Of a stretch of DNA of 32,000 bases, positions 2,680 through 30,753 are shown in pieces; position 1 is the stretch's first letter, and every line of letters starts with the position of its first letter. The stretch lies in NCBI GenBank assembly GCA_045617125.1, contig JAZLIA010000114.1:3690-35689 (forward strand). Reading direction: 5' to 3'. The notes beneath the pieces were generated by a model. That model was not told the origin of the DNA and ran no database searches. It worked only from the letters and a program-made list of their open reading frames with translations. This DNA is from Clostridia bacterium. GTDB lineage: Bacteria; Bacillota; Clostridia; Christensenellales; Aristaeellaceae. The translations under genes were made by a program, and so were the position numbers.

Positions 2680-4020
2680 TCAGTTGCCATTGAAGATGTC
2701 GCACAGGGACTGCCAAGCAGGCATACCGGCTTCAACGATCTCCGCAGGAGTGCCGTTGCCAAGAGCCCACAGCAGGTTGCTGCCGATAACATCGTTGTTG
2801 GAGCCCAGCAGGAACAGCTTGTAAGCGCAAGCGTGATCGTTGCCGCGCATCATGGCATAGGTCTCATACACGGCGCGCTCGTCGGTGTAGAGGATCTTGT
2901 TGCCAACCCAGGTCTCGTTCTCTTCGCCGCCGTTCACATCATAGGTGTACAGGTCATAGATCTGCTGCAGCTTGAGAGAGGTTTCTTCGTCATACACATT
3001 GGGAATACCATAGATGTTGGGGCAGGCCAAAGCCATGTAGTCAGCACCCTTGGGTCCCTTGGGGAACATCACAGCGCCCCATTCATCGGCCATGTCAGCC
3101 ATTTCGGAACCATCGTTGAAGCCCTGCCAGGTCTGGCCGGCATAGAAAGCGGTGGTGCCTTCCTTCCAATAGGACTTGAACCAATCCCACTGGGTATCGG
3201 CAGGCTGAGGAGCAGCATAGGTGTTCCAGGTGTCAATACGGAACTGCAGAGCTTCCAGAGCGGCGTCAGTGCCCATCACGGGAGCCAGCTTGCCATCAAC
3301 GGTGTCAAAGAAGTTAGCGCCATTGGAGATGACGAGGCCGATGGTGAAGTCATCACCGGAACCGGTCATGCCGTAAACATCGATAACGCCATCGTTATCC
3401 ACGTCGCGCTGAACCTTGGCCATGATTTCGGTCATCATATCCCAAGTCCAGGTGCCGTCAGCCTGAGCATCATAGATGGTGTTGTAGTCCACACCGGCTT
3501 CTTCCAGAACACGCTTATTGAAGAAGATGCAGGAACGGGGCTCGTTAGCACCAACGTTCACACCGAAGACCTTACCGTCCAGGGTAGTGAACTGAGAAGC
3601 GATCGCATTCCACTTGTCGGAGGACAGGTCGATGCTCCAGGGCATATACAGGTTGTTGGCCAGAGCGTTGCCGGCAAAGTCAGAAGCGATGGCGATCAGG
3701 CACAGTTCGCTGTTGTCCTTGTTCATAACGCGGTTAGCCAGTTCGGTGGGGTTGCCTTCCCAATCGCTCAGAGCCTTTTCAACGAGCTTCACGTTGTAGG
3801 TCTCTTCGAGCCAGTCACGATAGGCATAAGTGTTGGCGAGTTCGTCATCGGGATCTTCGTCACGTTCGCCTTTGGACCACCAGTCATAGAAATACACGGT
3901 CTGTCCGCCGAAATCAAGACCTTCGATGATCTCGGGGTAGCCCTCCGGCACTTCAGCCAGAGCAGCGCAGGAAACAACCAGCAGCGCCGCAACCAGCAGC
4001 ATAGCAAGCAGTTTCTTCAT
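2680..4020 (-). CDS. ABC transporter extracellular solute-binding lipoprotein (family 1, carbohydrate/CUT1 type)
   Basis: I start it at ATG 4020 (MKKLLAMLLVAALLVVSCAALAE, lipobox VVSC) with RBS ggaggaatcccc upstream; the longer track ORF start at 4047 has no RBS. The W/Y/D-rich periplasmic binding-protein composition is typical of sugar SBPs. Confidence 0.88.
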   Translation of the reverse strand: MKKLLAMLLVAALLVVSCAALAEVPEGYPEIIEGLDFGGQTVYFYDWWSKGERDEDPDDELANTYAYRDWLEETYNVKLVEKALSDWEGNPTELANRVMNKDNSELCLIAIASDFAGNALANNLYMPWSIDLSSDKWNAIASQFTTLDGKVFGVNVGANEPRSCIFFNKRVLEEAGVDYNTIYDAQADGTWTWDMMTEIMAKVQRDVDNDGVIDVYGMTGSGDDFTIGLVISNGANFFDTVDGKLAPVMGTDAALEALQFRIDTWNTYAAPQPADTQWDWFKSYWKEGTTAFYAGQTWQGFNDGSEMADMADEWGAVMFPKGPKGADYMALACPNIYGIPNVYDEETSLKLQQIYDLYTYDVNGGEENETWVGNKILYTDERAVYETYAMMRGNDHACAYKLFLLGSNNDVIGSNLLWALGNGTPAEIVEAGMPAWQSLCDIFNGN

Positions 4021-4078: not shown

Positions 4079-4107
4079 ATTATAGCATTTCACCTAACTG
4101 TTTGCAA
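4079..4107 (-). promoter_or_regulatory. Near-consensus sigma-A promoter for the 455-aa SBP gene
   Basis: The minus strand reads TTGCAA (4107-4102), exactly 17 nt spacer, TATAAT (4084-4079). It lies about 60 nt upstream of ATG 4020 and downstream of the operon terminator. Confidence 0.7.
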
Positions 4108-4413: not shown

Positions 4414-5436
4414 TTATTCCTTGGAACCCGTCATGACCAGACTTTCAACGAAGGTACGCTGAGTGAAAGCATAAAGAACGATCAGCGGGATGCAGCAGAT
4501 AAACACTGCGATAGAAATCAGCTGTAGGGAACGGTTAGGAGCAACGACGACCGCCTGATTGCCTCCAGTGGCAAAGTACTTGGTCATTTCACTGGCCATT
4601 GTACTCATTTCAGTGGAGAAGAGAGTATACTTTGTCAGGAAGTTGCGGGAATAGAACAGGTCGGTCCACTGCCAGACGAACGCAAACAGAAAGCAGCTGG
4701 CGATCGTGGGAACAGCGTCGGGCAGCATGATCTTCACAAAGGTGTGCATGGTTCCGCAGCCATCCACATATGCCGCCTCTTCCAGACTTTCCGGCACGGA
4801 TTTGAAATACTGACGCATCATGAAGATGTAAAGCCCGTTTTTCAAACCCATGCAGGTCAAGCTCATCAAAGCATACGGCCAAATGGATCTTCGTATATTG
4901 AGCGGCTTTCCAGTAATCGCTGTGAAGATCCCGAATATATCAAAATTCGAAAAGTTCTTATAGAGCGATGTCTGGATCGTCTGCGGCGGTATGATGATCA
5001 GCGCGATCACACACGCAAACCAGAATTTCTTCAGCGGAAAATCAAACCTGGCAAAGCCGTATGCCACCAGCGTGCAGGAAATGATCTGCAGCGTAGCAGT
5101 CAGAAGCGATATCCACAGCGTGTTGACCATGGAGTTATCCGGCCAGGAATTCAGCTCCGTAAGATCCGCTACGATCCTGTAGTTGTCCAGAGTAACATTC
5201 CGGGGCAGCAGGATGACCGTGCTGTCATTCAGATCCTTTTCCTGCATCAGACTCATGGACATACGGGTGATCATCGGCTGGATGATCATGAAGCACAGGC
5301 CAAACATCAGCAGCGCCCGGGCCACGGATATCGCGATCTCCTTGCTGCGGCGCTTGAGCAGATAGCCGCCGCTGCGGCGGTTTCTGTCGCTGAATTTCAT
5401 ACTTTTCCCGATATAGACCGTATTATCCTTACTCAT
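4414..5436 (-). CDS. Carbohydrate ABC transporter permease (MalG-like), second pair
   Basis: 340 aa with 6 hydrophobic segments. EAA loop motif LEEAAYVDGCGTMHTFVKIMLPDAVP. 8-nt overlap (ATGAGTAA) with the preceding permease gene. Confidence 0.9.
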   Translation of the reverse strand: MSKDNTVYIGKSMKFSDRNRRSGGYLLKRRSKEIAISVARALLMFGLCFMIIQPMITRMSMSLMQEKDLNDSTVILLPRNVTLDNYRIVADLTELNSWPDNSMVNTLWISLLTATLQIISCTLVAYGFARFDFPLKKFWFACVIALIIIPPQTIQTSLYKNFSNFDIFGIFTAITGKPLNIRRSIWPYALMSLTCMGLKNGLYIFMMRQYFKSVPESLEEAAYVDGCGTMHTFVKIMLPDAVPTIASCFLFAFVWQWTDLFYSRNFLTKYTLFSTEMSTMASEMTKYFATGGNQAVVVAPNRSLQLISIAVFICCIPLIVLYAFTQRTFVESLVMTGSKE

Positions 5437-6424
5437 AAGTCTTCACCACCAGTTTGATAATTGCGGTGCCTACACCGATGATCGCCAGGGCCACACCGAA
5501 ATAGATCCAGCTCATGGCGGAGGCATAACCGAAGTTGCCCTGCCGGTACATCACGGTGCTGGTCACATATTCCATCACCTTGTTATCATTCTTCATGAAG
5601 AAGTCGATGATAGTGTAGATCAGGTTCACCAGAAGCAGCGGGCTCACCATGGGGAAAGTGATCTTCCAGAAGGATTCCCAGGCAGAGCAGCCTTCCACAT
5701 CCGCCGCCTCATACAGGGAGGGAGAAATGGACTGCAGGCCGCTCAGCAGCACGATGATCTGGATGCCGCTGGCCATGACCACGTCATAAATGGCATCGAT
5801 CATTCTGAAGATCACATCAAACACATCACCGGCTACACCGGAAACCGATAGAAGGCTCTCCAGCGCCGCTGAAATATTGACTCCGGAGGCTTCCTCCACA
5901 GAATTGCCAATACCGGTCATCAGGTTATAGAATTCATTGGAGCTTTCGATTCCGGGCAAAACACCGGAAGAAAGGATCACGGGCAGGAAGAAGATGATCC
6001 TGCAGAAGGTCCTGCCCTTGAAATTCTGGTTCAGAATGACCGCGATCACGAAGCTCATCACCAGCGTAGCCACGATATTGATGAGCATACGCCAGATCTC
6101 GCCTTCCAGATCATTCGCTGTGCTGAACAGGTATTTGAAGAAGTTCGGATCGGTCCTGAGCGCATAATTGTAGTTGGTGAAGTTGTTCCATTTGATGATG
6201 TTCAATCCATCAGCAATGCCGTCCACATCACACAGACTCATTGCCAGTGAATTCACGATCGGCTGCAGCAGGAATGCGAAAAAGCCAATGATAAACGGTA
6301 AAATGAACAGAACACCCACACGGGCACGCCGACCCTTGATCGTTCTATAGGGTGCAGTACCTGGAACGTACTGCAGCACGGCATCCCTTGTCCTTTCCAG
6401 GAAGCTGCCCTTTTTTTCACTCAT
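5429..6424 (-). CDS. Sugar ABC transporter permease (MalF-like), second pair
   Basis: 331 aa. EAA motif LYEAADVEGCSAWESFWKITFPMVSP. ATGA overlap with the stop of the 879-aa gene upstream. Confidence 0.9.
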   Translation of the reverse strand: MSEKKGSFLERTRDAVLQYVPGTAPYRTIKGRRARVGVLFILPFIIGFFAFLLQPIVNSLAMSLCDVDGIADGLNIIKWNNFTNYNYALRTDPNFFKYLFSTANDLEGEIWRMLINIVATLVMSFVIAVILNQNFKGRTFCRIIFFLPVILSSGVLPGIESSNEFYNLMTGIGNSVEEASGVNISAALESLLSVSGVAGDVFDVIFRMIDAIYDVVMASGIQIIVLLSGLQSISPSLYEAADVEGCSAWESFWKITFPMVSPLLLVNLIYTIIDFFMKNDNKVMEYVTSTVMYRQGNFGYASAMSWIYFGVALAIIGVGTAIIKLVVKTYE

Positions 6425-9060
6425 TCGGCGATCCCTCCTTCCGATTCAGTGTCGATTCCTTCCGCATCCGCGGGCAGAACAGAGTAGCTGCCTCTCACAT
6501 AGCTTCTGGCAGGGATCAGGGTCCCGTTGACCGTGAAGTCCTGGCTGCCATAGTTGACATACACGCAGCTGCCGTCCTCATAATAGGTTTCAGACACATC
6601 CTCGCTCACATGCCTGTGGCCGATGATAGACTGGCGGTTAAGGCCTGACATATCCTGCTGATACTGTGCAATCAGCGGGAGGATCTCATCCTTCCAGCGG
6701 TCATAGGCTGCGGAGGTGTAGCAGCTGTAAGCAGAATCCTGCAGGATCATGGTATCTTCCTTCATGAAGGTGAAGTTGAGACCGGACCCGAATTCCGCGC
6801 ACCTGAGCAGCGCGGTGTGCCAGTCACCGGCCAGGTTGATCGCCTCACCGGTATAATCCTTCAGGCCATGCAGCACGATCTGGTAGAAGGGAACCGATTC
6901 ATCCAGGATCGCATAGCTGTTTCCGGCCAGATCCATATCCGTCACGATATCCGCATAAGGAAGAGCATACATGTTGCCTGACTTGATAGAAATCTTCATC
7001 GTTGAGGCTGCGGTATCCAGAATGGCGGATTCCATCTTCTTCACTTCTTCACGGGTCACCGTATTGCGGCTGTAATAATCACCGCTGATAAGGCGTCCGA
7101 TATCACGGAAAGCAATACCGGCCGCATTGTGACCGTTCAGATCCCTAATCAGGTTTTCGGCACACTTTTCAGCAAATTCAGGACGCACCAGATAGAACGA
7201 ATCCATCCAATCGCTCTGACGGAAGGTGATGATATCGAACGGATAAAGCTTCACCTGCTCACGGGTGGTATAACGCGCGGCGTTGGAAGCGGGAATGAAG
7301 CCTTCCAGAATGCCGCTGTCATAAGCAAAGCAGGTGATCCCGTCAAAGTAAAGGTCAACTCCCTTTTCCTTAGCGGACTGGATCAGCTCATCCATCTTTT
7401 TATCGCCGCCCAGCTCTCTCACCGTGTTGACGCTGGTGAGCACCTTCTGTCGGACGCCGCCATTTGACCAGCCAGTCATACGTACGGACAGATCCTTTAC
7501 TCCGACTGCCTTCAATTCATCAATGATCTCATCGGCCTGGTCGAATGTGGTGACCGGAACAACAGAATCAATAGGCAGCCCTGCCTTCACCTGTGTCTTA
7601 TTGATGGCACCGACCAGTTCCACATTGACGGGCATATCCTCGGAAGCAGAAACATCCAGATCCTCACCGTATTTTTCCTGCAGATAGGAACGGAAGGAAT
7701 GAGCCATATCCACATAGCTGTCGCCTTCAATGAAACGGTAGCGCTGCACGATCGTTGCTTTGGGGATCTCCTTCTCATACATGTAGAAGGGTTCGGTTCC
7801 GCCGCCGGACACTTTGAACTTGTCATAGTGAATCACGTTATACTTGGCATAAACCTCGTTGTAACTGCTGATCTTTTCTGAAATATCCGCCATGATACTG
7901 GCAAATGCATCGCCTTCTTCGATCACGCAGATAAAGGAGCCGTCCCCCTGCCCCATACCGAACACCGGCAGGGCAGTGCGGTTTTCTGTTTTGGCTTCGT
8001 TCGTGATGCGGGCATAGTCCATGCCGTACACATTGGTCACGTACGTTGCCTGCTTGATCTTATGGTTGTTGTAGCGGATGATGGAGCCGCCGCCTTCGGG
8101 AACGAACATGTAGCCGTCAGTCTTCAGGTCAGCCGCGCCAAACATGGGAAGAACGGAAATCGCGCTCAGCGGTTCACTCGTCCCGCACCGGATGGAATCA
8201 TAGGGAACGGACACCACGAAGTCTCCATTCTCATCAAGCCGGTAGAGGACGGAAAGGTTGAAAATCGGCCCGTTTGAAGTAATTCCCGTCTCCACCTTAT
8301 TGGCGTTATCGATCTCAAGATCCTCCGCGGTGTATCCCGCATCGGCAAAATAGCCTTCCAGATCGCCCTTCTGTTTGATCGACATATCCGCCTTGGCCAC
8401 ATACAGCACATGATCCCGCACAGTGGGATACTGTTCCTCCAGCTGCTTCAGTTCATCTTCCTTCAGCTTGGCAGGATCCTTTTTGCTGTAAAGCTTGCTG
8501 ACAAGCTTGGAATTCTTCTTTCCCATCTTGTCGGAAAAATCCTTGAAACGTTCTTCCGTCAGCACGGTGGGGAAATTGTAGACACGCTCGATCTGACCGA
8601 TCGCGTAATCCACCCTGACAGAACCGTCTTCCTGGTTAATGATATTGAAATTGCGGTTCGCGATGGAATAGGTGTAGTTGTTCCATTCAATATCGGCACC
8701 AAAGCTGGAATAAACGATGCTCACCGTGGAAGCCAGGAATTCACGGTTCTTCTGGATCTTGGCATACTCGGTATCCTCTGCCCAGTTTGTCGGGTTGGAA
8801 TACCACACTTTGCCAGTTTTCTTGTCTGTCAGAGTAAAATGGGTCGTCTGCGGATCCATTTCGAACAGCAAACGCTCATTTTCCATGGTGACTGCTTTTG
8901 CATCCTCATCCGCAAAGAGCACCTCGGGGGCTTCACCGTAATTCACATTGTCGTTCACCGTATACACCTTGTAGAGCACAAAGGCGAACGCAGCCAGGAG
9001 CAGAAGCACCACGCCCAGCACGATCAGGCGGATGAGACGCTTTTTCTTTTTGTTATTCAT
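6421..9060 (-). CDS. N-terminally membrane-anchored 879-aa extracytoplasmic protein, DUF5696-like, function unknown
   Basis: ATG 9060 follows a G-rich RBS. MNNKKKKRLIRLIVLGVVLLLLAAFAFVLY is a signal-anchor. Residues ~477-770 show alternating strand/helix segments (VNVELVG, DEIIDELKAVG, LSVRMTGW, MDELIQSAKEKG, DLYFDGI, AENLIRDL, AGIAFRDIG, ...) suggestive of a (beta/alpha)8 barrel. The family name is recalled from similar gene neighbourhoods and was not searched. Confidence 0.6.
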   Translation of the reverse strand: MNNKKKKRLIRLIVLGVVLLLLAAFAFVLYKVYTVNDNVNYGEAPEVLFADEDAKAVTMENERLLFEMDPQTTHFTLTDKKTGKVWYSNPTNWAEDTEYAKIQKNREFLASTVSIVYSSFGADIEWNNYTYSIANRNFNIINQEDGSVRVDYAIGQIERVYNFPTVLTEERFKDFSDKMGKKNSKLVSKLYSKKDPAKLKEDELKQLEEQYPTVRDHVLYVAKADMSIKQKGDLEGYFADAGYTAEDLEIDNANKVETGITSNGPIFNLSVLYRLDENGDFVVSVPYDSIRCGTSEPLSAISVLPMFGAADLKTDGYMFVPEGGGSIIRYNNHKIKQATYVTNVYGMDYARITNEAKTENRTALPVFGMGQGDGSFICVIEEGDAFASIMADISEKISSYNEVYAKYNVIHYDKFKVSGGGTEPFYMYEKEIPKATIVQRYRFIEGDSYVDMAHSFRSYLQEKYGEDLDVSASEDMPVNVELVGAINKTQVKAGLPIDSVVPVTTFDQADEIIDELKAVGVKDLSVRMTGWSNGGVRQKVLTSVNTVRELGGDKKMDELIQSAKEKGVDLYFDGITCFAYDSGILEGFIPASNAARYTTREQVKLYPFDIITFRQSDWMDSFYLVRPEFAEKCAENLIRDLNGHNAAGIAFRDIGRLISGDYYSRNTVTREEVKKMESAILDTAASTMKISIKSGNMYALPYADIVTDMDLAGNSYAILDESVPFYQIVLHGLKDYTGEAINLAGDWHTALLRCAEFGSGLNFTFMKEDTMILQDSAYSCYTSAAYDRWKDEILPLIAQYQQDMSGLNRQSIIGHRHVSEDVSETYYEDGSCVYVNYGSQDFTVNGTLIPARSYVRGSYSVLPADAEGIDTESEGGIAE

Positions 9061-9073: not shown

Positions 9074-9775
9074 TTAATTCAATCTGAACACGATCTCGCG
9101 GTACATGCTCACAAAGTACCCGATCGCATCCGAAAGCAAGCTGAAGAACACAAGAATCAGGAAAATGATCACGCAGGCCCCGAATACTGTGAACAGCAGG
9201 AACGCGATGGTCTTCGCCGGGCCGTAATCGTGAATTTCCATCAAACCCACAAACACAAGGAACACGCACCATATCACACTGATCGCAAGCAGCACGGTGT
9301 AAAAACCGGATTCCTCAAAGGTGATCATATTGCTCACCAGGATCATCGGCAGCTGGATCAGCACATAGGGCACCAGGGCATAGCACATGCCGATATAAAT
9401 GTTCCGGAAAGTTCCCTTGCCGTCAAACAGCGTGGTCAGGGCCCAGTTTGCCAGGCACAGGATGAGGAACGGGAGCAGCAGAGACGCCATTTCCTCAAAC
9501 ACGTTGATGTGTTGGATGGGAGCGTTGATAAACTGGAAATTGGTGCACAGCAGCTTGAGCACACGGGTGATCAGAAACAGCACCAGGAACGTGGTTGCCA
9601 CTGCAAAGCTGCCCTTATCTTCATGGGCAAGATCCCAAAAGCCATCAAACGGATGAGTGATCACATGCAGGGCATATCGCATGTCACTCAGATATCCGCT
9701 GATCCGGGTGCCAAAGCTCACTTGGTTCATTTCCGCAGCCGCTTCAATTGTCTTTGCGGACTTTTTCATGCTCAT
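9074..9775 (-). CDS. YIP1-family polytopic membrane protein
   Basis: 233 aa. Cytoplasmic N-terminus with HVITHPFDGFWDL followed by five hydrophobic helices, which is the Yip1-domain layout. RBS gggaggtga upstream of ATG 9775. 32-nt overlap with the NHL gene end. Confidence 0.7.
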   Translation of the reverse strand: MSMKKSAKTIEAAAEMNQVSFGTRISGYLSDMRYALHVITHPFDGFWDLAHEDKGSFAVATTFLVLFLITRVLKLLCTNFQFINAPIQHINVFEEMASLLLPFLILCLANWALTTLFDGKGTFRNIYIGMCYALVPYVLIQLPMILVSNMITFEESGFYTVLLAISVIWCVFLVFVGLMEIHDYGPAKTIAFLLFTVFGACVIIFLILVFFSLLSDAIGYFVSMYREIVFRLN

Positions 9776-11347: not shown

Positions 11348-12562
11348 TCAGTCCTTGATACCGGACGAGGCCATCGTCTCGAGGATCTGACTCTGACTCA
11401 GAATGAAAATGAGGATGGGCACTGCCATGACCACCACAGTCACAGCCGCGGCCTGACCGGTACGTGCGATACCGCCGGCCTGAATCTGATTGAGCGCATA
11501 CACCAGGGTCTTCTTGGCTTCGGAATAGATCACGGTGCTGGCGCTGGTGTTCCACAGGCTCTGCACACTGAAAATGATCACAGTCAGCCACGCGGGTTTC
11601 ACATTGGGCATCACAATATGCCAGAAGATACGGAATTCACCGGCTCCATCAATGTGTGCAGCCTCGATCAGGGCTGTTGGCAGGCTCTCCATGAACTGCT
11701 TCATCATGAACAGACCGATCGGAGCGGCACACGCCGGCAGCAGCAGAGCCCAGTAAGTGTCGATCATGTTGAGACGGCTCATGATCAGGTAGTTGGGAAT
11801 ACCGGTCACATAACCGGAGAACATCAGGCATGTGGTCACCACGCCGAAGAACAGCTTTCCGCCGGGAAAATCATACTTTGCCAGCACGAACGCCGCCATG
11901 GAAGCAATGATCAGATGCCCGAAGGTTCCTAAGAAGGTGATCAGTACGGTGTTGGTAAGATACCGGCTGAAGGGCACCCAGCTCTGCCCCATCGTGACAA
12001 GAAGATCCGCAAAGTTATCCAGCGTGGGATGCTGTGCAAACACCGTAGGCGGGAAACGGAACAGCTCGTCCAGGGGCTTCAGGGAACTGCCGATCGCAAA
12101 CACCAGCGGGAATGCCATCGCGCAGGCCACCAGCGCCAGAAGCAGGTAGATGCCGATATCGCCGCCGACTGAACGGTTGGGATGGCGGCGGCGTATGCCG
12201 TGCTTTTTGGGTTTCTGGATCCTTTCGCCCCTCAGTTCCGCCAGACGGCGGTATTCATCGGCACGCGTGCGCACCTCGCCGGGACGATCCACCCACTTGC
12301 CGTCCAGATAGCGGAACATCTGAATGCCGCGATCCAAATAGAAGGTGTATTTCTTGTCCCCGCTCACAGTGACCGTCACGGTGGCTGTCGTACCGCCATT
12401 TCGCACCTGCGCCAATTTGGTGATCTGCACCAGCGGGAATTCCACCTTTCCTGCCGGCTTTTTGCATTCGAAGCGGACCTTTTCATCATCCGCGATCAGA
12501 ACACCTTTATATTTTTTACTGTCAAGCCCGGTCATGGAGCCGGTTGATCTGATCTCGCTCAT
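11348..12562 (-). CDS. Carbohydrate ABC transporter permease (MalG-like) with ~130-aa N-terminal cytoplasmic PH-like domain
   Basis: 404 aa. EAA motif LIEAAHIDGAGEFRIFWHIVMPNVKP and 6 TM segments in the C-terminal 270 aa. The N-terminal extension has beta-rich segments followed by one helix (ADEYRRLAELRGE) and a basic linker. Its start lies 1 nt after the upstream stop. Confidence 0.85.
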   Translation of the reverse strand: MSEIRSTGSMTGLDSKKYKGVLIADDEKVRFECKKPAGKVEFPLVQITKLAQVRNGGTTATVTVTVSGDKKYTFYLDRGIQMFRYLDGKWVDRPGEVRTRADEYRRLAELRGERIQKPKKHGIRRRHPNRSVGGDIGIYLLLALVACAMAFPLVFAIGSSLKPLDELFRFPPTVFAQHPTLDNFADLLVTMGQSWVPFSRYLTNTVLITFLGTFGHLIIASMAAFVLAKYDFPGGKLFFGVVTTCLMFSGYVTGIPNYLIMSRLNMIDTYWALLLPACAAPIGLFMMKQFMESLPTALIEAAHIDGAGEFRIFWHIVMPNVKPAWLTVIIFSVQSLWNTSASTVIYSEAKKTLVYALNQIQAGGIARTGQAAAVTVVVMAVPILIFILSQSQILETMASSGIKD

Positions 12563-12563: not shown

Positions 12564-13511
12564 TCATGTACCCACCTTTGCCAGCAGATTTGTGATCGCT
12601 TTCTTGCACAGGATCATCACCAGGAACAGCAAGGTCGCGATAGCGGATGCATAGCCCATTTCAAACCGGCTGAAGCCGTAGTCAAACAGATGGGTGACCA
12701 CGGTACGGGCAGCATAATCGGTGGAAGGATAACCGCACAGGGCGCGCGGCACATCGCACACGTTGAAAGCGGATGTGATGCTCATCACCGCTCCAAAGAG
12801 CAGCATGGGCTTCATGGAAGGCAAGGTAATATGATACAGTTCCTGCCAGCGGTTGCGCACACCGTCCACATAGCCTGCTTCATACATGCTGCGGTCCACG
12901 CTCTGGAAGCCGGCTACGAAGGAAAGGAAGCCGGTACCCATGCTCATCCACAGAATAACAACGATCAACACAGGCATGATGTACTGCGGATTGAGCAGCC
13001 ACAGGATAGGAGCATCCACAATGCCCAATTCCATCAGGAAAGAGTTGAGATAGCCATATGCGTCACCGCGGAAAATGATTGAGAACACGGTAAAGGCATT
13101 GGCGGCAATGGAGGGAGCATAGAAGATGACTACCGCGATGGTCCTCAGCCACTTTGGAAGCTCATTGATGAACCAAGCAAACATGAAGCTGAGGATGTAT
13201 CCGATAGGACCGGTGATCACGGCGATCACAAAGGTATTTTTGACAGCGGTCAGGAACACCTCGTCCTGCAGGATCAGGTTCACATAGTTCTGAAAACCGA
13301 TGAACCGTGCCGGTTCAAGAATGTTGTAGTAGGTGAAGCTGTAAAAAATCGAGGTTGCGATGGGCAGGATGAAGAAGGTGAAGAACAGAATGGCATACGG
13401 AGCGAGGAAAAGGTAACACACTTTCAGATTTTTTGCCCGTTGCCAGCCATAGACAAACTTTTCCTTCTTCATGGCTGCATACTTGCCGATTAATGATTTT
13501 GACTGCATCAT
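12564..13511 (-). CDS. Sugar ABC transporter permease (MalF-like), first pair
   Basis: EAA motif MYEAGYVDGVRNRWQELYHITLPSMKP. I start it at the ATGATG at 13511 with RBS aaggagag. The track start at 13532 would abut the SBP stop and has no RBS. Confidence 0.88.
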   Translation of the reverse strand: MMQSKSLIGKYAAMKKEKFVYGWQRAKNLKVCYLFLAPYAILFFTFFILPIATSIFYSFTYYNILEPARFIGFQNYVNLILQDEVFLTAVKNTFVIAVITGPIGYILSFMFAWFINELPKWLRTIAVVIFYAPSIAANAFTVFSIIFRGDAYGYLNSFLMELGIVDAPILWLLNPQYIMPVLIVVILWMSMGTGFLSFVAGFQSVDRSMYEAGYVDGVRNRWQELYHITLPSMKPMLLFGAVMSITSAFNVCDVPRALCGYPSTDYAARTVVTHLFDYGFSRFEMGYASAIATLLFLVMILCKKAITNLLAKVGT

Positions 13512-13532
13512 TTTCTCTCCTTTCCCTCCCAA

Positions 13533-16418
13533 TCAATCGAGCGGCAGATTGAATTCTTTACGTTTGATCCTGATCTCCTCGTTGATGGTGCGCGAGTAGG
13601 TCAGCAGTGATTCACGCGGATCGATCTTTTCGTTGATCACCTTACGGATCGCGTTGGTGATATGACGGGTGGTGGAATAGCCGCCTGCGATCTCAGGGAA
13701 GCCGCGGGTACTGCTCCGCTGCTCCTCCAGTACCGTCAGCTGACTGGTGGACCAGGCCAGCTGCCTGAGCGCTTCCTTATTGGCGGTCTGGTAACGGGCA
13801 CTGGCGCCCAGCACGCTTTCCATTTCGCGGCCGAATTCCACCTGACTTTCCGTGCCGACCCACCACTTCATGAACTCCCAAGCATTCTTTTTCACGGTTT
13901 CGTCATCGGTTTTGATCATCATGCAGCAGGTACCGTTGGAATGCACTGTGCGGTCGATCGTGCCGTCCGCCTTCAAGGTTCCGGGGAAGAGGGTGAAATC
14001 CCACAGCCCGCGGATCTCAGGAGCGGAGACCATCAGTGTGTTATAGGTGGAATAGCCTGCCACTCCCAGCGGCATTTCTCCGGAACGGAAACGGCTTACA
14101 AAGTCATACACCATAGGCAAGCCGTAATCGTTGTAAAGGCTGGTATACATCTTGAAAGCCTTCACACCGGCTTCGTTGGAAATGAGTGTCTTTCTCGCCA
14201 GGTCATCATAGATATCTCCCCCGTTCTGATACACCAGGGAATTGAAAATACTGATATCAGCCAGGGTAATATCCGGGAAAGGAACACCCACAGTGAGGCT
14301 GTTGCCCTGAATCGTAGGAAGCTCGGCGATCAGCTCATCCCAGGTCTGCGGAACTTCCAGCCCCAGTTCCTCCAGAACATCCTTGCGGTAGAAGAGCAGG
14401 CTGAAGTTCTGAGTTTCAGGCAAACCGAAAACGCCCTTGTGTTCACCGTTGTTATAGGTGAGCGGGTCCAGTGCGCTCTGCTCAAAAACACTGGCCACTT
14501 CGGCATAGTCTTCAAACTGGGTCAGATCCTCCACCGCGTTGCGCATGGCATAGTTAACGGCAAACCAACCGTCCACGCTCAGAACGATATCGGGACCATT
14601 CCCGGCAACAACGGCTGTCAGGATCGCGTCAGCGGCCACCAGCTTCACGTTGACCTTGATCCCGGTCTCCGGAGTGAAGCTGTCGTCCACCATGGTCTTC
14701 AAAATGGTACTCTGGTCACGGCCTGTAACGATCCAGATATCAATGATGTTGTCTTCATTGGCATCGTATTTGTCGCCCAAAGAGTTATAATCCACAAAGT
14801 AGGAACTGAGACAGCTCCTGATCTCATGCACCGCCTTCATGAAGAAGTTTTCATCCACAGAAGGGATCTTGGCATTTTCTCCGGTTACCATGATCAGATC
14901 CACATCCAGCTTGCTTTCGGACATATTCTGCATCGCGGTGCCCAGAGAAGTAATGTTATCCTTAAAATTGGTAAAGGATTCGGTTATGCGGTCATTGTCG
15001 CGAACAAACTGTTCAAGCTGAACGGCCATGGTCTGGGCTACGGCGATACGGTCGCTCTTCTGGCCCGTCGTGGCTACAGTTTCATCCACGATCCTGTAAA
15101 GGCGCTTGCTCTCCAGATCCATCGCCTCAAGCACTTCGGGATACACCGTTTTCAGGTTATAATCGCGGAAACGGTCGGGATTGACGCCAGTCAGAACCAG
15201 CAGTTTGCGGTAGATCTGGTTTAGGCGGTAGATACTGTCTTCCACTTCATTCAGCACCGGGCCCATGGCGCCCAAAGTGACCTCCATACGGATCTTATGG
15301 CTGCCCGCAGTAAGATAGAAGCGGAAAGGATCCCCTTCCTTGTTGCTCAATGTCACCATCTTCCAACCTGTGCTGTAGGAAAACTCAACACTGCTCAGAT
15401 CGGCAAACGGGATCTCATTGTCGATATAAATACTGCGGCAGCTCAGAGCACCGCGCTGATACACCTGTCTTGCCTTGATGGAAATGTTGTAATAGCCATC
15501 CTCAGGGACTTCAAAATTCCACTCGATCCACTCATTGGGATGCGTCCAGGCATCGCCGCCGATGTAGTTAAGCACCGTGCTGGTAACAGAATAAGGTTCG
15601 GTGACAGAAGAGGAACGGTCATATTTGGGGAAAAGACTGGGCTGGCTGCGCAGCACGGCATGCTCGCCCTGTACCTTCACGCTGCAGTTCCTGCCCGCTT
15701 CGGTCATATTCACCTGCGGCTGCGCCGCGAGATACTCTTCATAGGTTATGTATTTTACGGGAGGAAGCAGCTCGATCCCGCACACCACCATCGGCTCATT
15801 CACAGCCTTCATGGTCAGCGTGTTTTCACCTTCTTCGAAATAGAAACAATAGGGCTCATTCTGATAGCCCATATCATCCTTGCAGAAGGCCTGCTGAATG
15901 CCGAATACTTCCTTTTGGCTGGGGCGGATCTCGTTGCCCTGATTATCGGTACGCACTTCGCTCTTGTCAGTCCACATCCTGCTGAAACACAGCGTGCTGG
16001 CGCCGGTGAAAGGCAATTCACCATTGATCCGGATCTCGCGCTCAATATCCACACCGCGGCTCTGAGTGGTTAGATAATCAAGACGGATATTATAAAGGCC
16101 CGCCTGCGGTACATTCACTTTCCATGTCACTTCGGACCGGTCCAGGGTCAGCACGCCCTCGTCCTGAGAAACGGCGTCTCCCTCATATGCAAACACGTCA
16201 ACAGCAACCGGACCGGATACCGGTGCGGCATCGCTGTGTGCTGCAAGATAAGCCGTGTAGGTGTTGCCCCTTCCGATGCCTTCCGCCTCGGTGCTGAGAT
16301 CACACCCCTCATACTTGACGCTGAAATCGTTGTCTCCCCGGCCTGCGAGCCAGATGAGCACGACCGCAGCTGCCACGATCAGAACGCCCAGAATAATTCT
16401 CCGTACCTTCTTTGACAT
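13533..16418 (-). CDS. Giant (961 aa) membrane-anchored extracellular solute-binding protein with two tandem CBM-like beta-sandwich modules
   Basis: N-terminal signal-anchor RRIILGVLIVAAAVVLIWLAG with no lipobox Cys. Residues ~30-218 and ~240-383 are an internal duplication (VTWKVNVPQAGLYNIRLDY..RG....EIRINGELPF versus IEWNFEVPEDGYYNISIKA..RG....SIYIDNEIPF). A helical linker spans ~385-540. A family-1 SBP fold runs from ~558 to the end (IDIWIVTGRDQSTILKTMVDDSF...). Confidence 0.85.
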   Translation of the reverse strand: MSKKVRRIILGVLIVAAAVVLIWLAGRGDNDFSVKYEGCDLSTEAEGIGRGNTYTAYLAAHSDAAPVSGPVAVDVFAYEGDAVSQDEGVLTLDRSEVTWKVNVPQAGLYNIRLDYLTTQSRGVDIEREIRINGELPFTGASTLCFSRMWTDKSEVRTDNQGNEIRPSQKEVFGIQQAFCKDDMGYQNEPYCFYFEEGENTLTMKAVNEPMVVCGIELLPPVKYITYEEYLAAQPQVNMTEAGRNCSVKVQGEHAVLRSQPSLFPKYDRSSSVTEPYSVTSTVLNYIGGDAWTHPNEWIEWNFEVPEDGYYNISIKARQVYQRGALSCRSIYIDNEIPFADLSSVEFSYSTGWKMVTLSNKEGDPFRFYLTAGSHKIRMEVTLGAMGPVLNEVEDSIYRLNQIYRKLLVLTGVNPDRFRDYNLKTVYPEVLEAMDLESKRLYRIVDETVATTGQKSDRIAVAQTMAVQLEQFVRDNDRITESFTNFKDNITSLGTAMQNMSESKLDVDLIMVTGENAKIPSVDENFFMKAVHEIRSCLSSYFVDYNSLGDKYDANEDNIIDIWIVTGRDQSTILKTMVDDSFTPETGIKVNVKLVAADAILTAVVAGNGPDIVLSVDGWFAVNYAMRNAVEDLTQFEDYAEVASVFEQSALDPLTYNNGEHKGVFGLPETQNFSLLFYRKDVLEELGLEVPQTWDELIAELPTIQGNSLTVGVPFPDITLADISIFNSLVYQNGGDIYDDLARKTLISNEAGVKAFKMYTSLYNDYGLPMVYDFVSRFRSGEMPLGVAGYSTYNTLMVSAPEIRGLWDFTLFPGTLKADGTIDRTVHSNGTCCMMIKTDDETVKKNAWEFMKWWVGTESQVEFGREMESVLGASARYQTANKEALRQLAWSTSQLTVLEEQRSSTRGFPEIAGGYSTTRHITNAIRKVINEKIDPRESLLTYSRTINEEIRIKRKEFNLPLD

Positions 16419-16534: not shown

Positions 16535-16563
16535 ATTATACATATTGCTCAAAAATCTGTCAA
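16535..16563 (-). promoter_or_regulatory. Perfect consensus sigma-A promoter of the 12-kb transporter operon
   Basis: The minus strand reads TTGACA (16563-16558), 17 nt spacer gatttttgagcaatatg, TATAAT (16540-16535). Implied leader of about 110 nt to ATG 16418. Confidence 0.75.
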
Positions 16564-16685: not shown

Positions 16686-18245
16686 ATGAAACGGTTCGTT
16701 TCACTTATCTGCGCTTTGCTGATCGTTTTGTCCGCTTCGTCCGCACTTGCCGGTGAAGAGGGAACGATGTGGGATTTTGAGGATCTGAAAAATCCCGGCT
16801 TTTACAAATCCGGCGCCTGTCGCTACAGTGTTGAGCCTTTTCCGGATGACAGCGGTTCCTGTGCCCTGCATGTTTCTGAACGCACAGGAGACGGTTCGGG
16901 GGCGCTGGATATCCGCCCTGCCTCTCTGGATCTCCGTTTGGGAGACACGGCGTATATCTCAGTGCTTTTCCGTCAGGATTCTGTTCCGCAATGTGATTTT
17001 TCCCTGTACCTTACCTCGGATAGATCCGTTCCGCTGCTTTCCATCACCGCAGAACAGGGAAAATGGGCTGTGCTTCAGGGAGAATTGACCCTCAGCGACA
17101 ATTCAAACCTGCATTTTGCTCCTTCTGAGCAATTATCCGGACAGGATTTCTGGCTGGACCGGTTGGAAGTGCGTCTTCTTTCCCATGCCGTCAAAGAAGA
17201 AAGCGGCTACAGCCGCTGGCCAAAGGAGATCCCATCTCTCAAGGAGCTTTGCCGGGATCATTTTCTTTTCGGCGGTGCCGCGGCAGGGCTCGACCTGAAG
17301 GATCCTTCCCGGATGGATTTCTATGCCTCCCAGTTTGCAATCCTGACGCCTGGAAACGAGCTCAAGCCGGATTCGGTATTTGACCGTACCGCCAGTCAGC
17401 GCGCGGTGAAAGAAACCGGTGATGAAACACAGGTGCGGGTCCGTTTGAATGCGGCAAAGCCTTTCCTTGACTTTTGCGCATCTCAGCATATTCCCGTTCA
17501 TGGACACACCCTGCTGTGGCATAACCAGACTCCATCCGATTTTTTCCGTCTTGGTTATCTTTCCTCCAGTGAAATGGCGGACCGGGAGATCATGCTGGGA
17601 AGGATGGAAAACTACATTCAGGCTGTAATGGAGATCACCGAGCAGCAATACCCCGGCCTTATCGTCAGCTGGGATGTGGTGAATGAAGCCATTGACGATT
17701 CCACAGGCCAACTTCGTGAAAACGTGAGCTGGTACCGCACCGTTGGCCCGGATTATGTGGAAAAAGCATTTGAATTTGCCAGAAAATACGCAAGAGAGGA
17801 TATCCTTCTGTGTTACAACGATTATAATTCCGCCAATTTTCCCAAATCCAAGGGAATTCTGGAATTGCTGAACACCCTTGTTAAGCAGGACAACATTGAC
17901 TGCTATGGCTTCCAGGCTCATTACGAAACCAACAACCCCACAGTAAGCATGGTGGAAAGCATGTTCCGGAAGGTGACCGATCTGGGCCTGAAGATCCGGG
18001 TGAGCGAAATGGATGTGAAGGTGACCACAGTAACTCCCCTGGGATTTGAACAGCAGGCTAAAAAATACCGGGATCTGATGGAATTGTTCCTCCGTTACGA
18101 ATCTTCCGTTGTCGCAGTACAGACCTGGGGCGGAACGGATGACACCAGCTGGCGTTCTTCCGATCGCCCCTTGCTTTTCGCGGCCTACGGAGAACCCAAG
18201 CCCGCCTTCTGGGCCGTCGCAGGGCTGTTTCAGAAAACAGAATAA
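16686..18245 (+). CDS. Secreted GH10 endo-1,4-beta-xylanase with N-terminal CBM22 (CBM_4_9)-like module
   Basis: RBS ggaggg 7 nt upstream. Signal peptide MKRFVSLICALLIVLSASSALA. GH10 hallmarks: GHTLLWHNQTP, WDVVNEA (acid/base Glu), CYNDYN, GFQAHY, IRVSEMDV (nucleophile Glu), QTWG. The first ~160 residues form a beta-rich CBM-like domain. Confidence 0.92.
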   Translation: MKRFVSLICALLIVLSASSALAGEEGTMWDFEDLKNPGFYKSGACRYSVEPFPDDSGSCALHVSERTGDGSGALDIRPASLDLRLGDTAYISVLFRQDSVPQCDFSLYLTSDRSVPLLSITAEQGKWAVLQGELTLSDNSNLHFAPSEQLSGQDFWLDRLEVRLLSHAVKEESGYSRWPKEIPSLKELCRDHFLFGGAAAGLDLKDPSRMDFYASQFAILTPGNELKPDSVFDRTASQRAVKETGDETQVRVRLNAAKPFLDFCASQHIPVHGHTLLWHNQTPSDFFRLGYLSSSEMADREIMLGRMENYIQAVMEITEQQYPGLIVSWDVVNEAIDDSTGQLRENVSWYRTVGPDYVEKAFEFARKYAREDILLCYNDYNSANFPKSKGILELLNTLVKQDNIDCYGFQAHYETNNPTVSMVESMFRKVTDLGLKIRVSEMDVKVTTVTPLGFEQQAKKYRDLMELFLRYESSVVAVQTWGGTDDTSWRSSDRPLLFAAYGEPKPAFWAVAGLFQKTE

Positions 18246-18321: not shown

Positions 18322-20367
18322 TCAGGGAACCAGCCGCTCTGTCTTTTTCTCCGGTATTTTTCCGATCACCAATGCACACCTGCAGGGTATATAGATCGTA
18401 AAGCCGCTTCCCTTCCCCGGAACCTCTCCTGAATGATACACGGTTGTCCTGTCGATCCGTTCCTGACCTCCAAATTCAGGAGTATCTGTAGAAAAGATCA
18501 CCCGGTAATCCCCTGCTCCCAAAAGATGCGTGTGCACGAAGAAATCCGTTTCGGAATGCACAGTATTGAAATTGAATACATAGATCAGCTTTCCCTTGCA
18601 GAAAGAGACGATCCTTTTTTCCTGGTCGATCCACAGGTTCACAGCTTCCTTTTGCCTGAGTACCTTATGCGCAGAAGCAAACTTCAGCATTGCCCTGTCA
18701 AAATTCTCCAGCCAGCTGTATTTCAGATATCCATTTTCCACAAGAGACCATTGACGGCGGGCATACTTGTAGCTCCATCCATTTCCCTCCCGCGGAAAAT
18801 CGATCCACTCCGGATGTCCGAATTCATTCCCCATGAAGTTCAGATATCCGTCTCCCGCCAGAGACAGTGTCACAAAACGGATCAGCTTATGCAGATCCAC
18901 AGCCCGGTCGATCACAGGAGAGTGGTACATTCTATCCATTCCGGTGTACATTTCAGCATCCGCCATACGGAAAATGAGCGTCTTGTCTCCTACCAGAGCC
19001 TGATCATGAGATTCAGCATACGCAATGCACTTTTCCTGTGGGCGTCTGGTAGTCAGTTCATACCACAGGCGGAACATGTCCCAATCCTCATCCCGATATT
19101 CCTTGAGAAGACGTATCCACAGATCCGGCAAGCCCATACTGAGCCGGTAGTCAAAACCGTATCCTCCCTTTTCCACGGGGATGCACATGCCAGGCATACC
19201 GCTCATTTCCTCCGCCACCGTGATCGCGCCAGGATCCACCTGATGGATCAGCATATTGGCAAGGCGCAGATAACAGAGGGCATCCAGATCCGTATTCATG
19301 CTGAAATACTGGGAATAATCCGTAAAAGCACAGCCCAGGCCATGATTCTGATAGATCATCGATGTGACACCGTCAAACCGGAACCCGTCAAAATGAAAAT
19401 CCTCCATCCAGTACTTCAGATTGCTCAAAAGAAAATGGAGCACCTCCGGACGGGCATAGTCAAACAGACGGGTCTTCCACGCAGGGTGCCACCCACGATC
19501 TCCAGAAAGAAAATACTGCCCATCTGTGCCATCTTGCCGGTTCAGTCCTTCCCCTTCATTCGGGCAGGCATGAGAATGCACCACATCCAGCAATACTCGC
19601 AGGCCCAGGGCATGAGCCCGGTCGATCAGGTATTTCAGGTCATCCGGTTCGCCATACCATCCGGAGGGAGCAAAAAAGTTGGTGACCTGATATCCAAAGG
19701 AAGCATAATACGGATGTTCCGCCACAGCCATCAGCTGCACGGTATTATAGCCCAGGTCGCGGATCCTGATCAGATTCCGATCAGCAAACTCCCTGTAGCT
19801 CCCGATTCCTTCTTTTTCCTGAGCCATCCCGATATGCGCTTCATAGATCAGGGGCGGTTCTTTTTTCCGTTCCCGATAGCCCGCATCGCTCCACTCGTAG
19901 GATCTTTCCGGCTCCCACACCATGGCGCATAATGCCCCGGTCTCCGGATCATGGTGGGTGAAGCGTACATAGGCCGGGATCCTCTCAAAGCTATCCTCAC
20001 CGCGGCGCACCCACAGCTTGTAGAACATGCGGTGCTTTATTGCATCTTTTCCCGGAATAAACCCTTCCCACTCACCGTTATCCTTTCGGATGAGGGGAAT
20101 GCTCTTTTTATCCCAGCCGTTCATATCCCCGATCAGATGCACTTCATCCGCTCCGGGCAGCCATTCCCTGAATACCCAGCCGTCTTCCGTTCGATGAAGG
20201 CCGAAATACATGCTGCCGTTGGCAAAGGAATAAAGATCCTGTCCGCATCCCAGACGGTTCAGAATATCTAAGAACCGTTCTTCTCTCAGGGTAAGATTCT
20301 CCCTGTACGGTTTGAGCCAGGGGTCGATCCTGATCATCCAATCTGCTCCCGAAAGCGTTTTCTTCAT
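18322..20367 (-). CDS. glgB: 1,4-alpha-glucan branching enzyme (GH13, eukaryote-like ~680-aa type)
   Basis: GH13 conserved regions VLLDVVHSHA, FHFDGFRFDGVTSM, ITVAEEMSGMP, YAESHDQALVGDK. I start it at ATG 20367 (MKKTLSGADWMIRIDPWL) with RBS gaggagga. The longer track ORF overlaps the upstream gene. Confidence 0.9.
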   Translation of the reverse strand: MKKTLSGADWMIRIDPWLKPYRENLTLREERFLDILNRLGCGQDLYSFANGSMYFGLHRTEDGWVFREWLPGADEVHLIGDMNGWDKKSIPLIRKDNGEWEGFIPGKDAIKHRMFYKLWVRRGEDSFERIPAYVRFTHHDPETGALCAMVWEPERSYEWSDAGYRERKKEPPLIYEAHIGMAQEKEGIGSYREFADRNLIRIRDLGYNTVQLMAVAEHPYYASFGYQVTNFFAPSGWYGEPDDLKYLIDRAHALGLRVLLDVVHSHACPNEGEGLNRQDGTDGQYFLSGDRGWHPAWKTRLFDYARPEVLHFLLSNLKYWMEDFHFDGFRFDGVTSMIYQNHGLGCAFTDYSQYFSMNTDLDALCYLRLANMLIHQVDPGAITVAEEMSGMPGMCIPVEKGGYGFDYRLSMGLPDLWIRLLKEYRDEDWDMFRLWYELTTRRPQEKCIAYAESHDQALVGDKTLIFRMADAEMYTGMDRMYHSPVIDRAVDLHKLIRFVTLSLAGDGYLNFMGNEFGHPEWIDFPREGNGWSYKYARRQWSLVENGYLKYSWLENFDRAMLKFASAHKVLRQKEAVNLWIDQEKRIVSFCKGKLIYVFNFNTVHSETDFFVHTHLLGAGDYRVIFSTDTPEFGGQERIDRTTVYHSGEVPGKGSGFTIYIPCRCALVIGKIPEKKTERLVP

Positions 20368-20393
20368 CAACCTATCCTCCTCTGCCGGGCTGT

Positions 20394-20912
20394 TTATTCC
20401 CCCGGCATGATTCGCGATTTCCTCTTCACCCACACATCGATCTCATCTTTTTCCGGAGCCTGCCAAAGGCTCTCCATTTTTTGAAGAAGACCTTCATCCA
20501 CAAAAAAATCCGGTCCGCCCTCCCGCAAAACAGCTTCGTTCCGTCTGGCTATATTCTCCATCCGGGTATCGTCATCCGTATCCAGATAATGCCATTCCAT
20601 ATTCACTCCGGCATTTTTACAAAAAGCGGTAATCCGATCCCGGTCCTTTCTGGTCCAGAAGCCCCAGTCCAGAATCACATCTGAACCGGCGTGAACGATC
20701 TCACAGGCTTTCTTCATCAGATATTCATTGGCATTTTGGGCAAGCTCGTTATAGCTTTCACCCTGTTTGTTCCGGGTAAGCACCCAGGTCAGTTCATCGG
20801 TCGAAAGAATCACTCCGCCGTGCTCAGCCTGGAATCTTCGGGCATAATAGCTTTTTCCGCTGCAGATCTTTCCGCATATCGCTATGACTTTCTTTGTCTC
20901 ATTCATCTTCAT
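20394..20912 (-). CDS. P-loop NTPase / small-molecule-kinase-like ATP-binding protein (AAA_33-like)
   Basis: Walker A motif ICGKICSGKS and Walker-B-like VILDWG, about 170 aa. ATG 20912 (MKMNETKK) overlaps the dus stop by 14 nt. Confidence 0.7.
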   Translation of the reverse strand: MKMNETKKVIAICGKICSGKSYYARRFQAEHGGVILSTDELTWVLTRNKQGESYNELAQNANEYLMKKACEIVHAGSDVILDWGFWTRKDRDRITAFCKNAGVNMEWHYLDTDDDTRMENIARRNEAVLREGGPDFFVDEGLLQKMESLWQAPEKDEIDVWVKRKSRIMPGE

Positions 20913-21852: not shown

Positions 21853-21854
21853 TT

Positions 21855-22394: not shown

Positions 22395-22421
22395 ATGTCT
22401 GTCTCCCGGATTTCAAAATAA

Positions 22422-22451
22422 CGGTGCCTGACGCAAACCGGTCAGGCACCG
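22422..22451 (-). terminator. Rho-independent terminator after ackA
   Basis: 11-bp stem cggtgcctgac / gtcaggcaccg with an 8-nt loop. On the minus strand it is followed by TTATTTTG. Lies 12 nt below the ackA stop. Confidence 0.75.
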
Positions 22452-22462
22452 CATCGGAATTC

Positions 22463-23695: not shown

Positions 23696-23760
23696 GTTCT
23701 TTACTCCTTTATTTCACCGGAACCAAACAGCTCCGGCGATAATACACAGCTTGATTTGTT

Positions 23761-24630: not shown

Positions 24631-24663
24631 TGTGTTGTTCCTCCGCAGCTTGTTATAGAGGTA

Positions 24664-25905: not shown

Positions 25906-25922
25906 TCTGTCCTCCATACGGT

Positions 25923-26972: not shown

Positions 26973-27010
26973 CTCGATCCTCCGGAAAAAAGCACGAATA
27001 TATCAAGCTG

Positions 27011-30723: not shown

Positions 30724-30753
30724 TGCTTTATCCCCTTTCCCGAAACCGGCCCA

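Follow-up and report, generated by a model that had tools for sequence, protein, structure and literature searches.

The 32,000-nucleotide stretch of Clostridia bacterium DNA analyzed here (hereafter the window; contig JAZLIA010000114.1, Aristaeellaceae) carries on its minus strand a gene for an 879-residue protein of Pfam family DUF5696 (PF18952). Judged by its predicted structure and by sequence-profile comparison, this protein is homologous, at great divergence, to the retaining alpha-glycosidases of glycoside hydrolase (GH) family 129, of the GH129-like enzymes, and of GH101. What is new here is an anchored, catalytically re-wired, and uncharacterized offshoot of an established glycosidase superfamily, and its genes sit within a conserved import module. 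An initial annotation, made from the sequence alone, had proposed that the protein may hide a (beta/alpha)8 barrel belonging to no recognizable GH family and might found a new family of carbohydrate-active enzymes. The barrel is borne out by the present analysis; the lack of a family is not, as homology to GH129 is detectable by profiles alone (expectation value, E, of 6e-12) as well as by structural search with Foldseek. What had been proposed as a new family is therefore better described as an uncharacterized lineage, strongly diverged, within the GH129/GH101 superfamily.

The fold was modeled with AlphaFold2 on a 134-sequence alignment (A1), with a mean predicted local distance difference test score (pLDDT) of 94.4 and a predicted template modeling score (pTM) of 0.91. 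In the model, an N-terminal beta-sandwich with a helical insertion is connected by a long linker helix to a barrel region, which is followed by a small C-terminal beta domain; the protein is thus predicted to adopt the beta-sandwich, (beta/alpha)8 barrel, beta-sandwich architecture of glycoside hydrolases. The barrel strands lie at residues 478-483 (b1), 524-529 (b2), 569-574 (b3), 648-651 (b4), 689-693 (b5), 705-707 (b6), 735-737 (b7), and 760-766 (b8). Because eight strand/helix units are modeled, the alternation of short hydrophobic strands and amphipathic helices first noticed in the bare sequence can be read as a real barrel flanked by beta domains: all 13 motifs quoted for it fall within residues 478-766, its nucleotide bounds translate to the barrel residues as claimed, and both flanks are as rich in beta structure as had been supposed (Table 1). 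Structure prediction followed by Foldseek, which the same annotation had suggested as a check, therefore returns both a barrel and glycosidases.

Against the Protein Data Bank (PDB), the best Foldseek matches are to the GH129-like enzyme DagB, or ZgGH129 (5opq, 8rzk), with E 3e-31 and a template modeling (TM) score of 0.65-0.67 normalized to the target. The GH129 enzyme NagBb (5wzq/5wzn) follows with E 2e-25 to 6e-25 and a TM score of 0.70, then the GH101 endo-alpha-N-acetylgalactosaminidases (E ~1e-15 to 1e-17). Structures of GH31 and of GH36-type enzymes rank below GH101, at E 1e-10 to 1e-14. The clan GH-D/GH31-like layout originally put forward therefore names the right structural class, but the nearest relatives are GH129 and GH101. 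Sequence profiles lead to the same enzymes. Searched against the PDB, a DUF5696 profile finds DagB at E 6e-12 in three collinear stretches; NagBb is matched where the barrel begins, at E 1e-8. Family-to-family alignment with hhalign joins DUF5696 to the DagB family with 99.9% probability and E 1e-30; the 638-639 aligned columns begin at the first beta-strand and reach as far as the C-terminal domain. For the NagBb family the same method gives 96.6% (E 6e-10). The DagB set comprised 24 sequences fetched from genome contigs and the NagBb set 21 from gut metagenome contigs; a word-indexed protein search with a 134-residue DagB fragment gave no match.

Membership in DUF5696 itself is secure. The target matches the Pfam model with E 3e-189 and 630.8 bits, far above the gathering cutoff of 25.6 bits, over residues 246-854 and profile positions 2-612 of 612, and matches no NCBIfam model. 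The family is large: 836 homologs were recovered at E ≤ 1e-5, and among representatives of 50%-identity clusters E ≤ 1e-3 is reached by 4729 and E ≤ 1e-30 by 2633. Relatives bearing names come from metagenome-assembled genomes labeled "Clostridia bacterium" and from an "uncultured bacterium" clone. A Pfam scan of seven longer DUF5696 proteins (947-2431 residues) revealed no informative fused domain.

The Pfam entry gives no functional annotation, and the link to GH129 is merely implicit in it. A DagB ortholog from Zobellia uliginosa (L005:1655-3736), 99% identical to DagB across the 134-residue query fragment, nevertheless scores 40.2 bits on the DUF5696 model, beyond the cutoff; it also scores 21.2 bits on Glyco_hydro_129, below the cutoff there, and matches DUF6259 weakly. 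The DUF5696 model therefore already takes in a protein closely orthologous to a crystallized and assayed glycosidase. By these profile scores the label "unknown function" is out of date, and DUF5696, Glyco_hydro_129, and DUF6259 probably belong in one clan.

A hydropathy scan finds one strongly hydrophobic stretch in the entire protein, at residues ~9-30, which AlphaFold models as part of one continuous helix (residues 2-32); the single N-terminal signal-anchor and extracytoplasmic remainder described initially are thus real. An N-terminal transmembrane, signal, or lipobox segment is present in 131 of 134 family members. The gene is preceded by a ribosome-binding site, AAGGGGGG, and the residue numbers used throughout follow the protein, checked codon by codon.

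Comparison with characterized relatives shows how far the target has diverged. DagB (ZGAL_3152; PDB 5opq and 8rzg-8rzk) is the exo-alpha-1,3-(3,6-anhydro)-D-galactosidase of Zobellia galactanivorans, built of a distorted beta-sandwich, a triosephosphate isomerase (TIM) barrel, and an immunoglobulin-like C-terminal domain, with its activity and mutagenesis described (PMC5698469). The modeled target shares the three-domain layout at ~12-13% sequence identity in structural alignment. Unlike DagB, it carries a helical insertion of ~90 residues in the N-domain, and it is anchored to the membrane whereas DagB is periplasmic. DagB belongs to a Bacteroidota carrageenan polysaccharide utilization locus; the target sits in a Clostridia-type locus of ATP-binding cassette (ABC) transporters and hemicellulases. 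In place of a carrageenan-utilization context (sulfatases, GH127, dau genes), the window and ten homologous loci show a module of ABC, NHL, and Yip1 genes accompanied by hemicellulases. Catalytic residues and gene context thus set the protein outside the DagB group.

NagBb, the GH129 alpha-N-acetylgalactosaminidase of Bifidobacterium bifidum (PDB 5wzn/5wzp/5wzq/5wzr), shares the same order of beta-sandwich, barrel, and beta domain and is superposable on the modeled target, but starts directly with its first domain, whereas the target begins with its hydrophobic anchor. GH129 enzymes act as retaining alpha-N-acetylgalactosaminidases whose GalNAc site is assisted by Ca2+. NagBb serves the use of mucin O-glycans, as opposed to the plant fiber suggested for the target, and GH129 and GH101 are placed in the same superfamily (PMC8106489). 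The GH101 enzymes (EngBF, 2zxq; SpGH101, 3ecq/5a55) have the barrel and flanking beta-domains in common with the target, but are far larger multi-domain proteins, with TM scores of ~0.3 normalized to the target and no sequence-level match to it. The GH31 and GH36 enzymes (YihQ, 5oht; YicI, 1xsi/1we5; SpAga, 6phw; AgaA, 4fnr; also FpGalNase, 8x1b) share the structural class of beta-sandwich, TIM barrel, and beta-sandwich and are more distant than GH129.

In its active site, too, the target departs from these enzymes. The acids essential in DagB are D202, contributed by the N-domain of the partner subunit, D486, E517, and E531; D486 has been equated with the NagBb nucleophile D435, and the roles of D486 and E517 are taken here from PDB titles and the same paper (PMC5698469). 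In the hhalign alignment, D201/D202 of DagB pair with D348/Y349 of the target, D483 with D653, D486 with R656, R500 with R670, and E531 with T707. None of the essential acids is matched in exact register: E517 is clearly lost, being replaced by K693, and D486 and E531 find partners solely after a shift of 1-3 residues. From NagBb, nucleophile D435 aligns with D653, the acid/base E478 with K693, and the stacking residue W398 with T612; D661 has no acidic counterpart in the alignment with either enzyme. A control alignment of DagB with NagBb recovers E517 = E478 and W455 = W398 exactly and misses D486 = D435 by 2 residues. Where b4 ends, the alignment can accordingly be trusted only to within 2-3 residues, and among the candidates for the nucleophile position D653 fits best.

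Conservation was assessed at two depths. Throughout the target clade, whose 174 sequences share 38-72% identity with the target, D348, E481, D653, D661, R670, N742, and E756 are invariant, and D720 (173/174), D573 (172/174), and D708 (160/174) nearly so; position 693 is lysine in 158 sequences, arginine in 8, and asparagine in 7. Fourteen of the 131 acids are at least 98% conserved. Six clade-conserved acids belong to the barrel (E481, D573, D653, D661, D720, and E756), and with the exception of E756 each is found within b1, b3, b4, or b6, at the strand end, or shortly beyond it. Such strand regions are where barrel active sites form, and the conservation pattern is the one to be expected of a working site.

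Among 134 representatives of the whole family, N742 is retained in all, R670 in 132, D661 in 129, D348 and E756 in 127 each, and D720 in 118. The acids initially pointed out at strand ends fare differently: position 573, in the FDG motif, is D or E in 101 of the 134, so that this acid is conserved family-wide, but D653 (aspartate in 67) and D708 (in 41) are conserved just within the target clade. The column at position 693 is mixed (D 34, N 25, E 18, S 13, K 12) and acidic in 52 representatives. As aligned, the target clade keeps the presumptive nucleophile position and has a fixed basic residue at the acid/base position. Of 15 representatives combining an acid at 653 with lysine or arginine at 693, 13 have an acid at 708.

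Between clades, an acidic residue appears to shift among the ends of b4, b5, and b6 with D661 and D720 fixed, with patterns such as D653/K693/D708 in some and S or T653/D693/N708/P710 in others. Acids at 653 and 693 are anticorrelated (Fisher p 3.5e-4 for the 134 sequences, uncorrected for phylogeny); a model in which the acid simply swaps between the two positions was rejected, as 30 of the 134 sequences have an acid at neither.

We favor, at a probability of roughly 55%, the reading that the DUF5696 protein works as a retaining alpha-glycosidase tethered to the cell surface, trimming oligosaccharides of hemicellulose ahead of their import. NagBb and GH101 are retaining by their CAZy families, and DagB is reportedly so, to go by the title of a 2024 article by Wallace et al.; since all characterized relatives (GH129, DagB, GH101) are retaining alpha-glycosidases, we infer the same activity for the target. 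It would act in exo fashion at the cell surface, on oligosaccharides of the arabino- or glucurono-xylan type released by neighboring GH10- and GH43-type enzymes, and, once an alpha-linked residue had been removed, the two transporters encoded beside it would bind the products and take them up. D653, just after b4, would serve as nucleophile in the manner of NagBb D435 and DagB D486. Because b5 carries K693, the acid/base is tentatively placed in the region of b6, where D708 or D720 might assume the role as in GH31, GH36, and GH27; in these families the nucleophile follows b4 and the acid/base b6. D348, from the N-domain, and D661 may assist catalysis.

Several observations weigh against this assignment. 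The target does not match the Pfam model of GH129 (PF11308, Glyco_hydro_129) even at E ≤ 10, and a lysine stands at the position of the GH129 acid/base, so that catalytic competence is inferred rather than evident; by these two features, sequence model and acid/base residue, the protein falls outside GH129. The alignment is loose where b4 ends, and the nucleophile depends on it. Positions 653 and 693 are both acidic in just 16 of the 134 representatives, so the catalytic pair of GH129 is not a general feature of DUF5696, and 17 of the 134 have no acid at 653, 693, or 708. A literature search found no paper mentioning DUF5696 or PF18952, and we know of no assayed member of DUF5696 proper. Finally, the substrate is proposed from gene neighborhood alone.

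The loss of the canonical acid/base and the scarcity of the GH129 pair would suit a non-catalytic, GH129-like pseudo-enzyme, a glycan-binding or scaffold subunit in a membrane complex with the NHL and Yip1 proteins and two ABC importers, which might for instance keep long oligosaccharides close to the membrane until the binding proteins take them over. Strict synteny with Yip1, NHL, and permease genes down to 28% identity, the fusion of NHL and Yip1 in one locus (L038), and a position between two permease pairs, unusual for a glycosidase, likewise suit an obligate complex better than a free-standing enzyme. We nonetheless regard such a role as unlikely. Binding-only derivatives of GH folds usually lose acids of this kind, whereas here a small set (14 of 131) is selectively conserved, five of them in or near strand ends on the catalytic side of the barrel; D348, D661, D720, R670, and N742 are near-invariant across ~28-72% identity, and three of the four essential DagB acids have counterparts within 1-3 alignment positions.

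About equally improbable, in our estimate, is that the protein shares the fold and actively processes carbohydrates, but by a chemistry or machinery unlike that of GH129. It might use D661 and D720 as its catalytic pair, act as a lyase or transglycosylase, or accept anionic sugars, for instance as an alpha-glucuronidase, with K693 binding a carboxylate such as that of the alpha-(4-O-methyl)glucuronic acid side chains of xylan. The family-wide invariants are indeed D661 and D720 and not positions 653 and 693, a basic residue (lysine in 158 of 174, arginine in 8) is fixed at the former acid/base site of the target clade, and the structurally related GH31 is known to include alpha-glucan lyases. 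Nor was any GH67 or GH115 alpha-glucuronidase gene seen in the inspected flanks of the xylan-type loci, but these flanks span 8-10 kb and such genes could lie elsewhere in the genome. The proposal is speculative, and D661 has no counterpart in DagB or NagBb.

That the protein is a clan GH-D or GH31-type enzyme proper, rather than a relative of GH129 and GH101, is very improbable: the Foldseek matches to 5oht, 1xsi, and 1we5 and to 6phw, 2yfn, and 4fnt are significant (E 1e-10 to 1e-13) and a b4 nucleophile with a b6 acid/base is plausible for the target clade, but the GH129-like and GH129 matches are better by 12-18 orders of magnitude, these are the sole families found by sequence profiles, and the Pfam models of GH31, GH36, and GH27 are not matched even at E ≤ 10. 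GH31 and GH36 were accordingly rejected as the closest families.

The gene neighborhood, on which the proposed substrate of a retaining alpha-glycosidase depends, is summarized in Table 1. Nine closely spaced genes on the minus strand, with start/stop overlaps of 4-32 nt, are co-transcribed as one operon, in which the DUF5696 gene comes sixth. Two CUT1-type sets, each of a family-1 sugar-binding protein and two BPD_transp_1 permeases, flank it. The ATPase of CUT1-type carbohydrate importers is often encoded elsewhere, and no ATPase gene occurs in the module, be it in the window or in any inspected homologous locus.

Table 1. Features of the DUF5696 gene, its predicted protein, and its surroundings (window coordinates)
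Feature	Position	Strand	Basis or remark
DUF5696 gene, 879 aa	6421..9060	(-)	ATG 9058-9060, stop 6421-6423; open reading frame list and translation
N-terminal membrane anchor, residues 9-30 (LIRLIVLGVVLLLLAAFAFVLY), behind a KKKKR stretch	8971..9036	(-)	Hydropathy scan
Predicted N-terminal beta-sandwich, residues ~56-444	7729..8895	(-)	DSSP of model; hhalign to DagB N-domain
Predicted helical insertion of ~90 residues in N-domain, residues ~166-253	8302..8565	(-)	Model helices 168-251 (model numbering, one less than in the protein); gaps in DagB family there
Predicted (beta/alpha)8 barrel, residues 477-770	6751..7632	(-)	Eight strand/helix units; Foldseek to GH129/GH101/GH36/GH31 barrels; profile matches to NagBb and DagB barrel starts
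Predicted C-terminal beta-sandwich (small beta domain), residues ~812-858	6487..6627	(-)	DSSP; aligns with DagB Ig-like C-domain
D348 codon, N-domain	8017-8019	(-)	Near-invariant; opposite DagB D201
D653 codon (RDIG, two residues past b4), candidate nucleophile	7102..7104	(-)	hhalign pairs with NagBb D435
D661 codon, hairpin after b4	7078..7080	(-)	Near-invariant family-wide
K693 codon (end of b5), GH129 acid/base position	6982..6984	(-)	Aligns with NagBb E478 and DagB E517
D708 codon (first D of TDMD, after b6), candidate acid/base in target clade	6937..6939	(-)	Adjoins T707, aligned with DagB E531
D720 codon, b6-a6 loop, before invariant P724	6901..6903	(-)	Conserved family-wide
Membrane-anchored solute-binding protein, 961 aa, first gene of module	13533..16418	(-)	Pfam SBP_bac_1/8 at 573-863; N-terminal transmembrane segment
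ABC permease, first pair	12564..13532	(-)	BPD_transp_1; GlcT/UgpA-like
ABC permease, first pair	11348..12562	(-)	BPD_transp_1 at residues 220-390
NHL-repeat/TPR protein (NHL beta-propeller), signal peptide and C-terminal transmembrane helix	9744..11297	(-)	Pfam NHL, TPR; AGGAGG before start 11297
Yip1-domain multi-pass membrane protein	9074..9775	(-)	Pfam Yip1 E 2.7e-13
ABC permease, second pair	5429..6424	(-)	BPD_transp_1; start overlaps DUF5696 stop by 4 nt
ABC permease, second pair	4414..5436	(-)	BPD_transp_1; MalG-like
Lipoprotein solute-binding protein, 446 aa, last gene of module	2680..4020	(-)	Lipobox LVVSC; ribosome-binding site GGAGG before ATG 4020
Sigma-70 consensus promoter TTGACA-17-TATAAT, perfect, ahead of module	16535..16563	(-)	12/12 match
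GH10 xylanase gene, divergent from module	16686..18245	(+)	Pfam Glyco_hydro_10 E 3.6e-76

The GH10 gene had been taken for an operon partner of the DUF5696 gene. It lies 7.6 kb away and is transcribed divergently from the promoter region of the operon, and hence not within it, although GH10 genes recur beside homologous modules. Ten homologous loci (L001-L004, L032-L038), with flanks of 8-10 kb, were compared. Their shared order is large binding protein, two permeases, NHL, Yip1, DUF5696, two permeases, and second binding protein, and the same module is found in relatives whose DUF5696 proteins are 55%, 52-54%, 40%, 32%, 29%, and 28% identical to the target, with the gene order permuted in the locus of one relative. 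Flanking genes encode GH10, GH43, GH5, GH26, GH36, GH39, GH51, and GH98 enzymes, an AXE1-like esterase, AraC regulators, and araA. The carriers are metagenome-assembled genomes named Clostridia bacterium and gut-derived metagenome assemblies. The nine-gene module is kept as DUF5696 identity falls from 72% to 28%, always beside hemicellulase genes. The distant locus L038 encodes NHL and Yip1 together in one fused open reading frame of 692 residues (L038:6908-8986), which hints that the two act together physically. Literature searches for the combination of Yip1, NHL, ABC, and glycoside hydrolase, and likewise for GH129-like, returned nothing relevant, and the import module is apparently undescribed.

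A broader picture may be sketched, though we hold it as doubtful: DUF5696 might form the catalytic core of an undescribed and widespread Gram-positive surface machine, in which a tethered GH129-superfamily enzyme with relocated catalytic acids stands in a fixed complex with NHL, Yip1, a binding protein bearing carbohydrate-binding modules (CBMs), and two ABC importers, and which would process and import complex hemicellulose.

GH-like folds within domains of unknown function are now a routine finding, and the context of the module, with NHL, Yip1, and a double ABC importer beside xylanases, is of greater interest than the fold. Its study could show how these fiber degraders couple surface trimming to uptake, and might also yield an enzyme activity new to the debranching of hemicellulose. 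The placement near GH129 and GH101 in turn lets DUF5696 be tested for retaining alpha-glycosidase activity at specified candidate residues, and exposes a gap in Pfam annotation, where a DagB ortholog scores as a DUF5696 member. If shown active, the family would probably found a CAZy GH family of its own, possibly with a specificity missing from the loci, such as that of a xylan alpha-glucuronidase. The size of the family, its altered catalytic constellation, and its fixed partnership with NHL, Yip1, and dual ABC transporters make it worth experiment.

Some features of the partner genes deserve mention. The 961-residue binding protein has an N-terminal extension of ~520 residues, and its matches to sugar-binding proteins in the PDB span just residues 552-877. 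Two segments of the extension resemble each other, and one of them weakly matches CBM35/Golvesin_C (residues 91-122), so that the extension may carry CBMs. The permease encoded at 11348-12562 has a soluble N-terminal extension of ~130 residues (MSEIRSTGSM...TVTVTVSGDKKYTFYLDRG...) ahead of its first membrane segment. For the lipoprotein binding protein, the listed open reading frame starts at TTG 4047, and ATG 4020 is the likelier start; it has no Pfam match, while syntenic genes elsewhere carry SBP_bac_1, and it matches weakly (E 6.5e-7) an arabino-oligosaccharide binder in the PDB, 6rjy.

The perfect sigma-70 promoter of the module sits in a 267-bp divergent region common to the module and the GH10 gene, and a weaker, extended -10 promoter (4079-4107, minus strand) precedes the last binding-protein gene after a gap of 393 nt. 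Two open reading frames of the window, 27099-28334 (-) and 21855-22394 (-), have no Pfam match. The remainder of the window beyond the GH10 gene (18322-32000) is of housekeeping character and unrelated to the module, with genes for a CBM48/alpha-amylase protein resembling branching enzymes, a dihydrouridine synthase, an acetate kinase, a DAG-kinase-like protein, an S41 peptidase, a PucR-type regulator, a MetH-like methionine synthase, and MTHFR.

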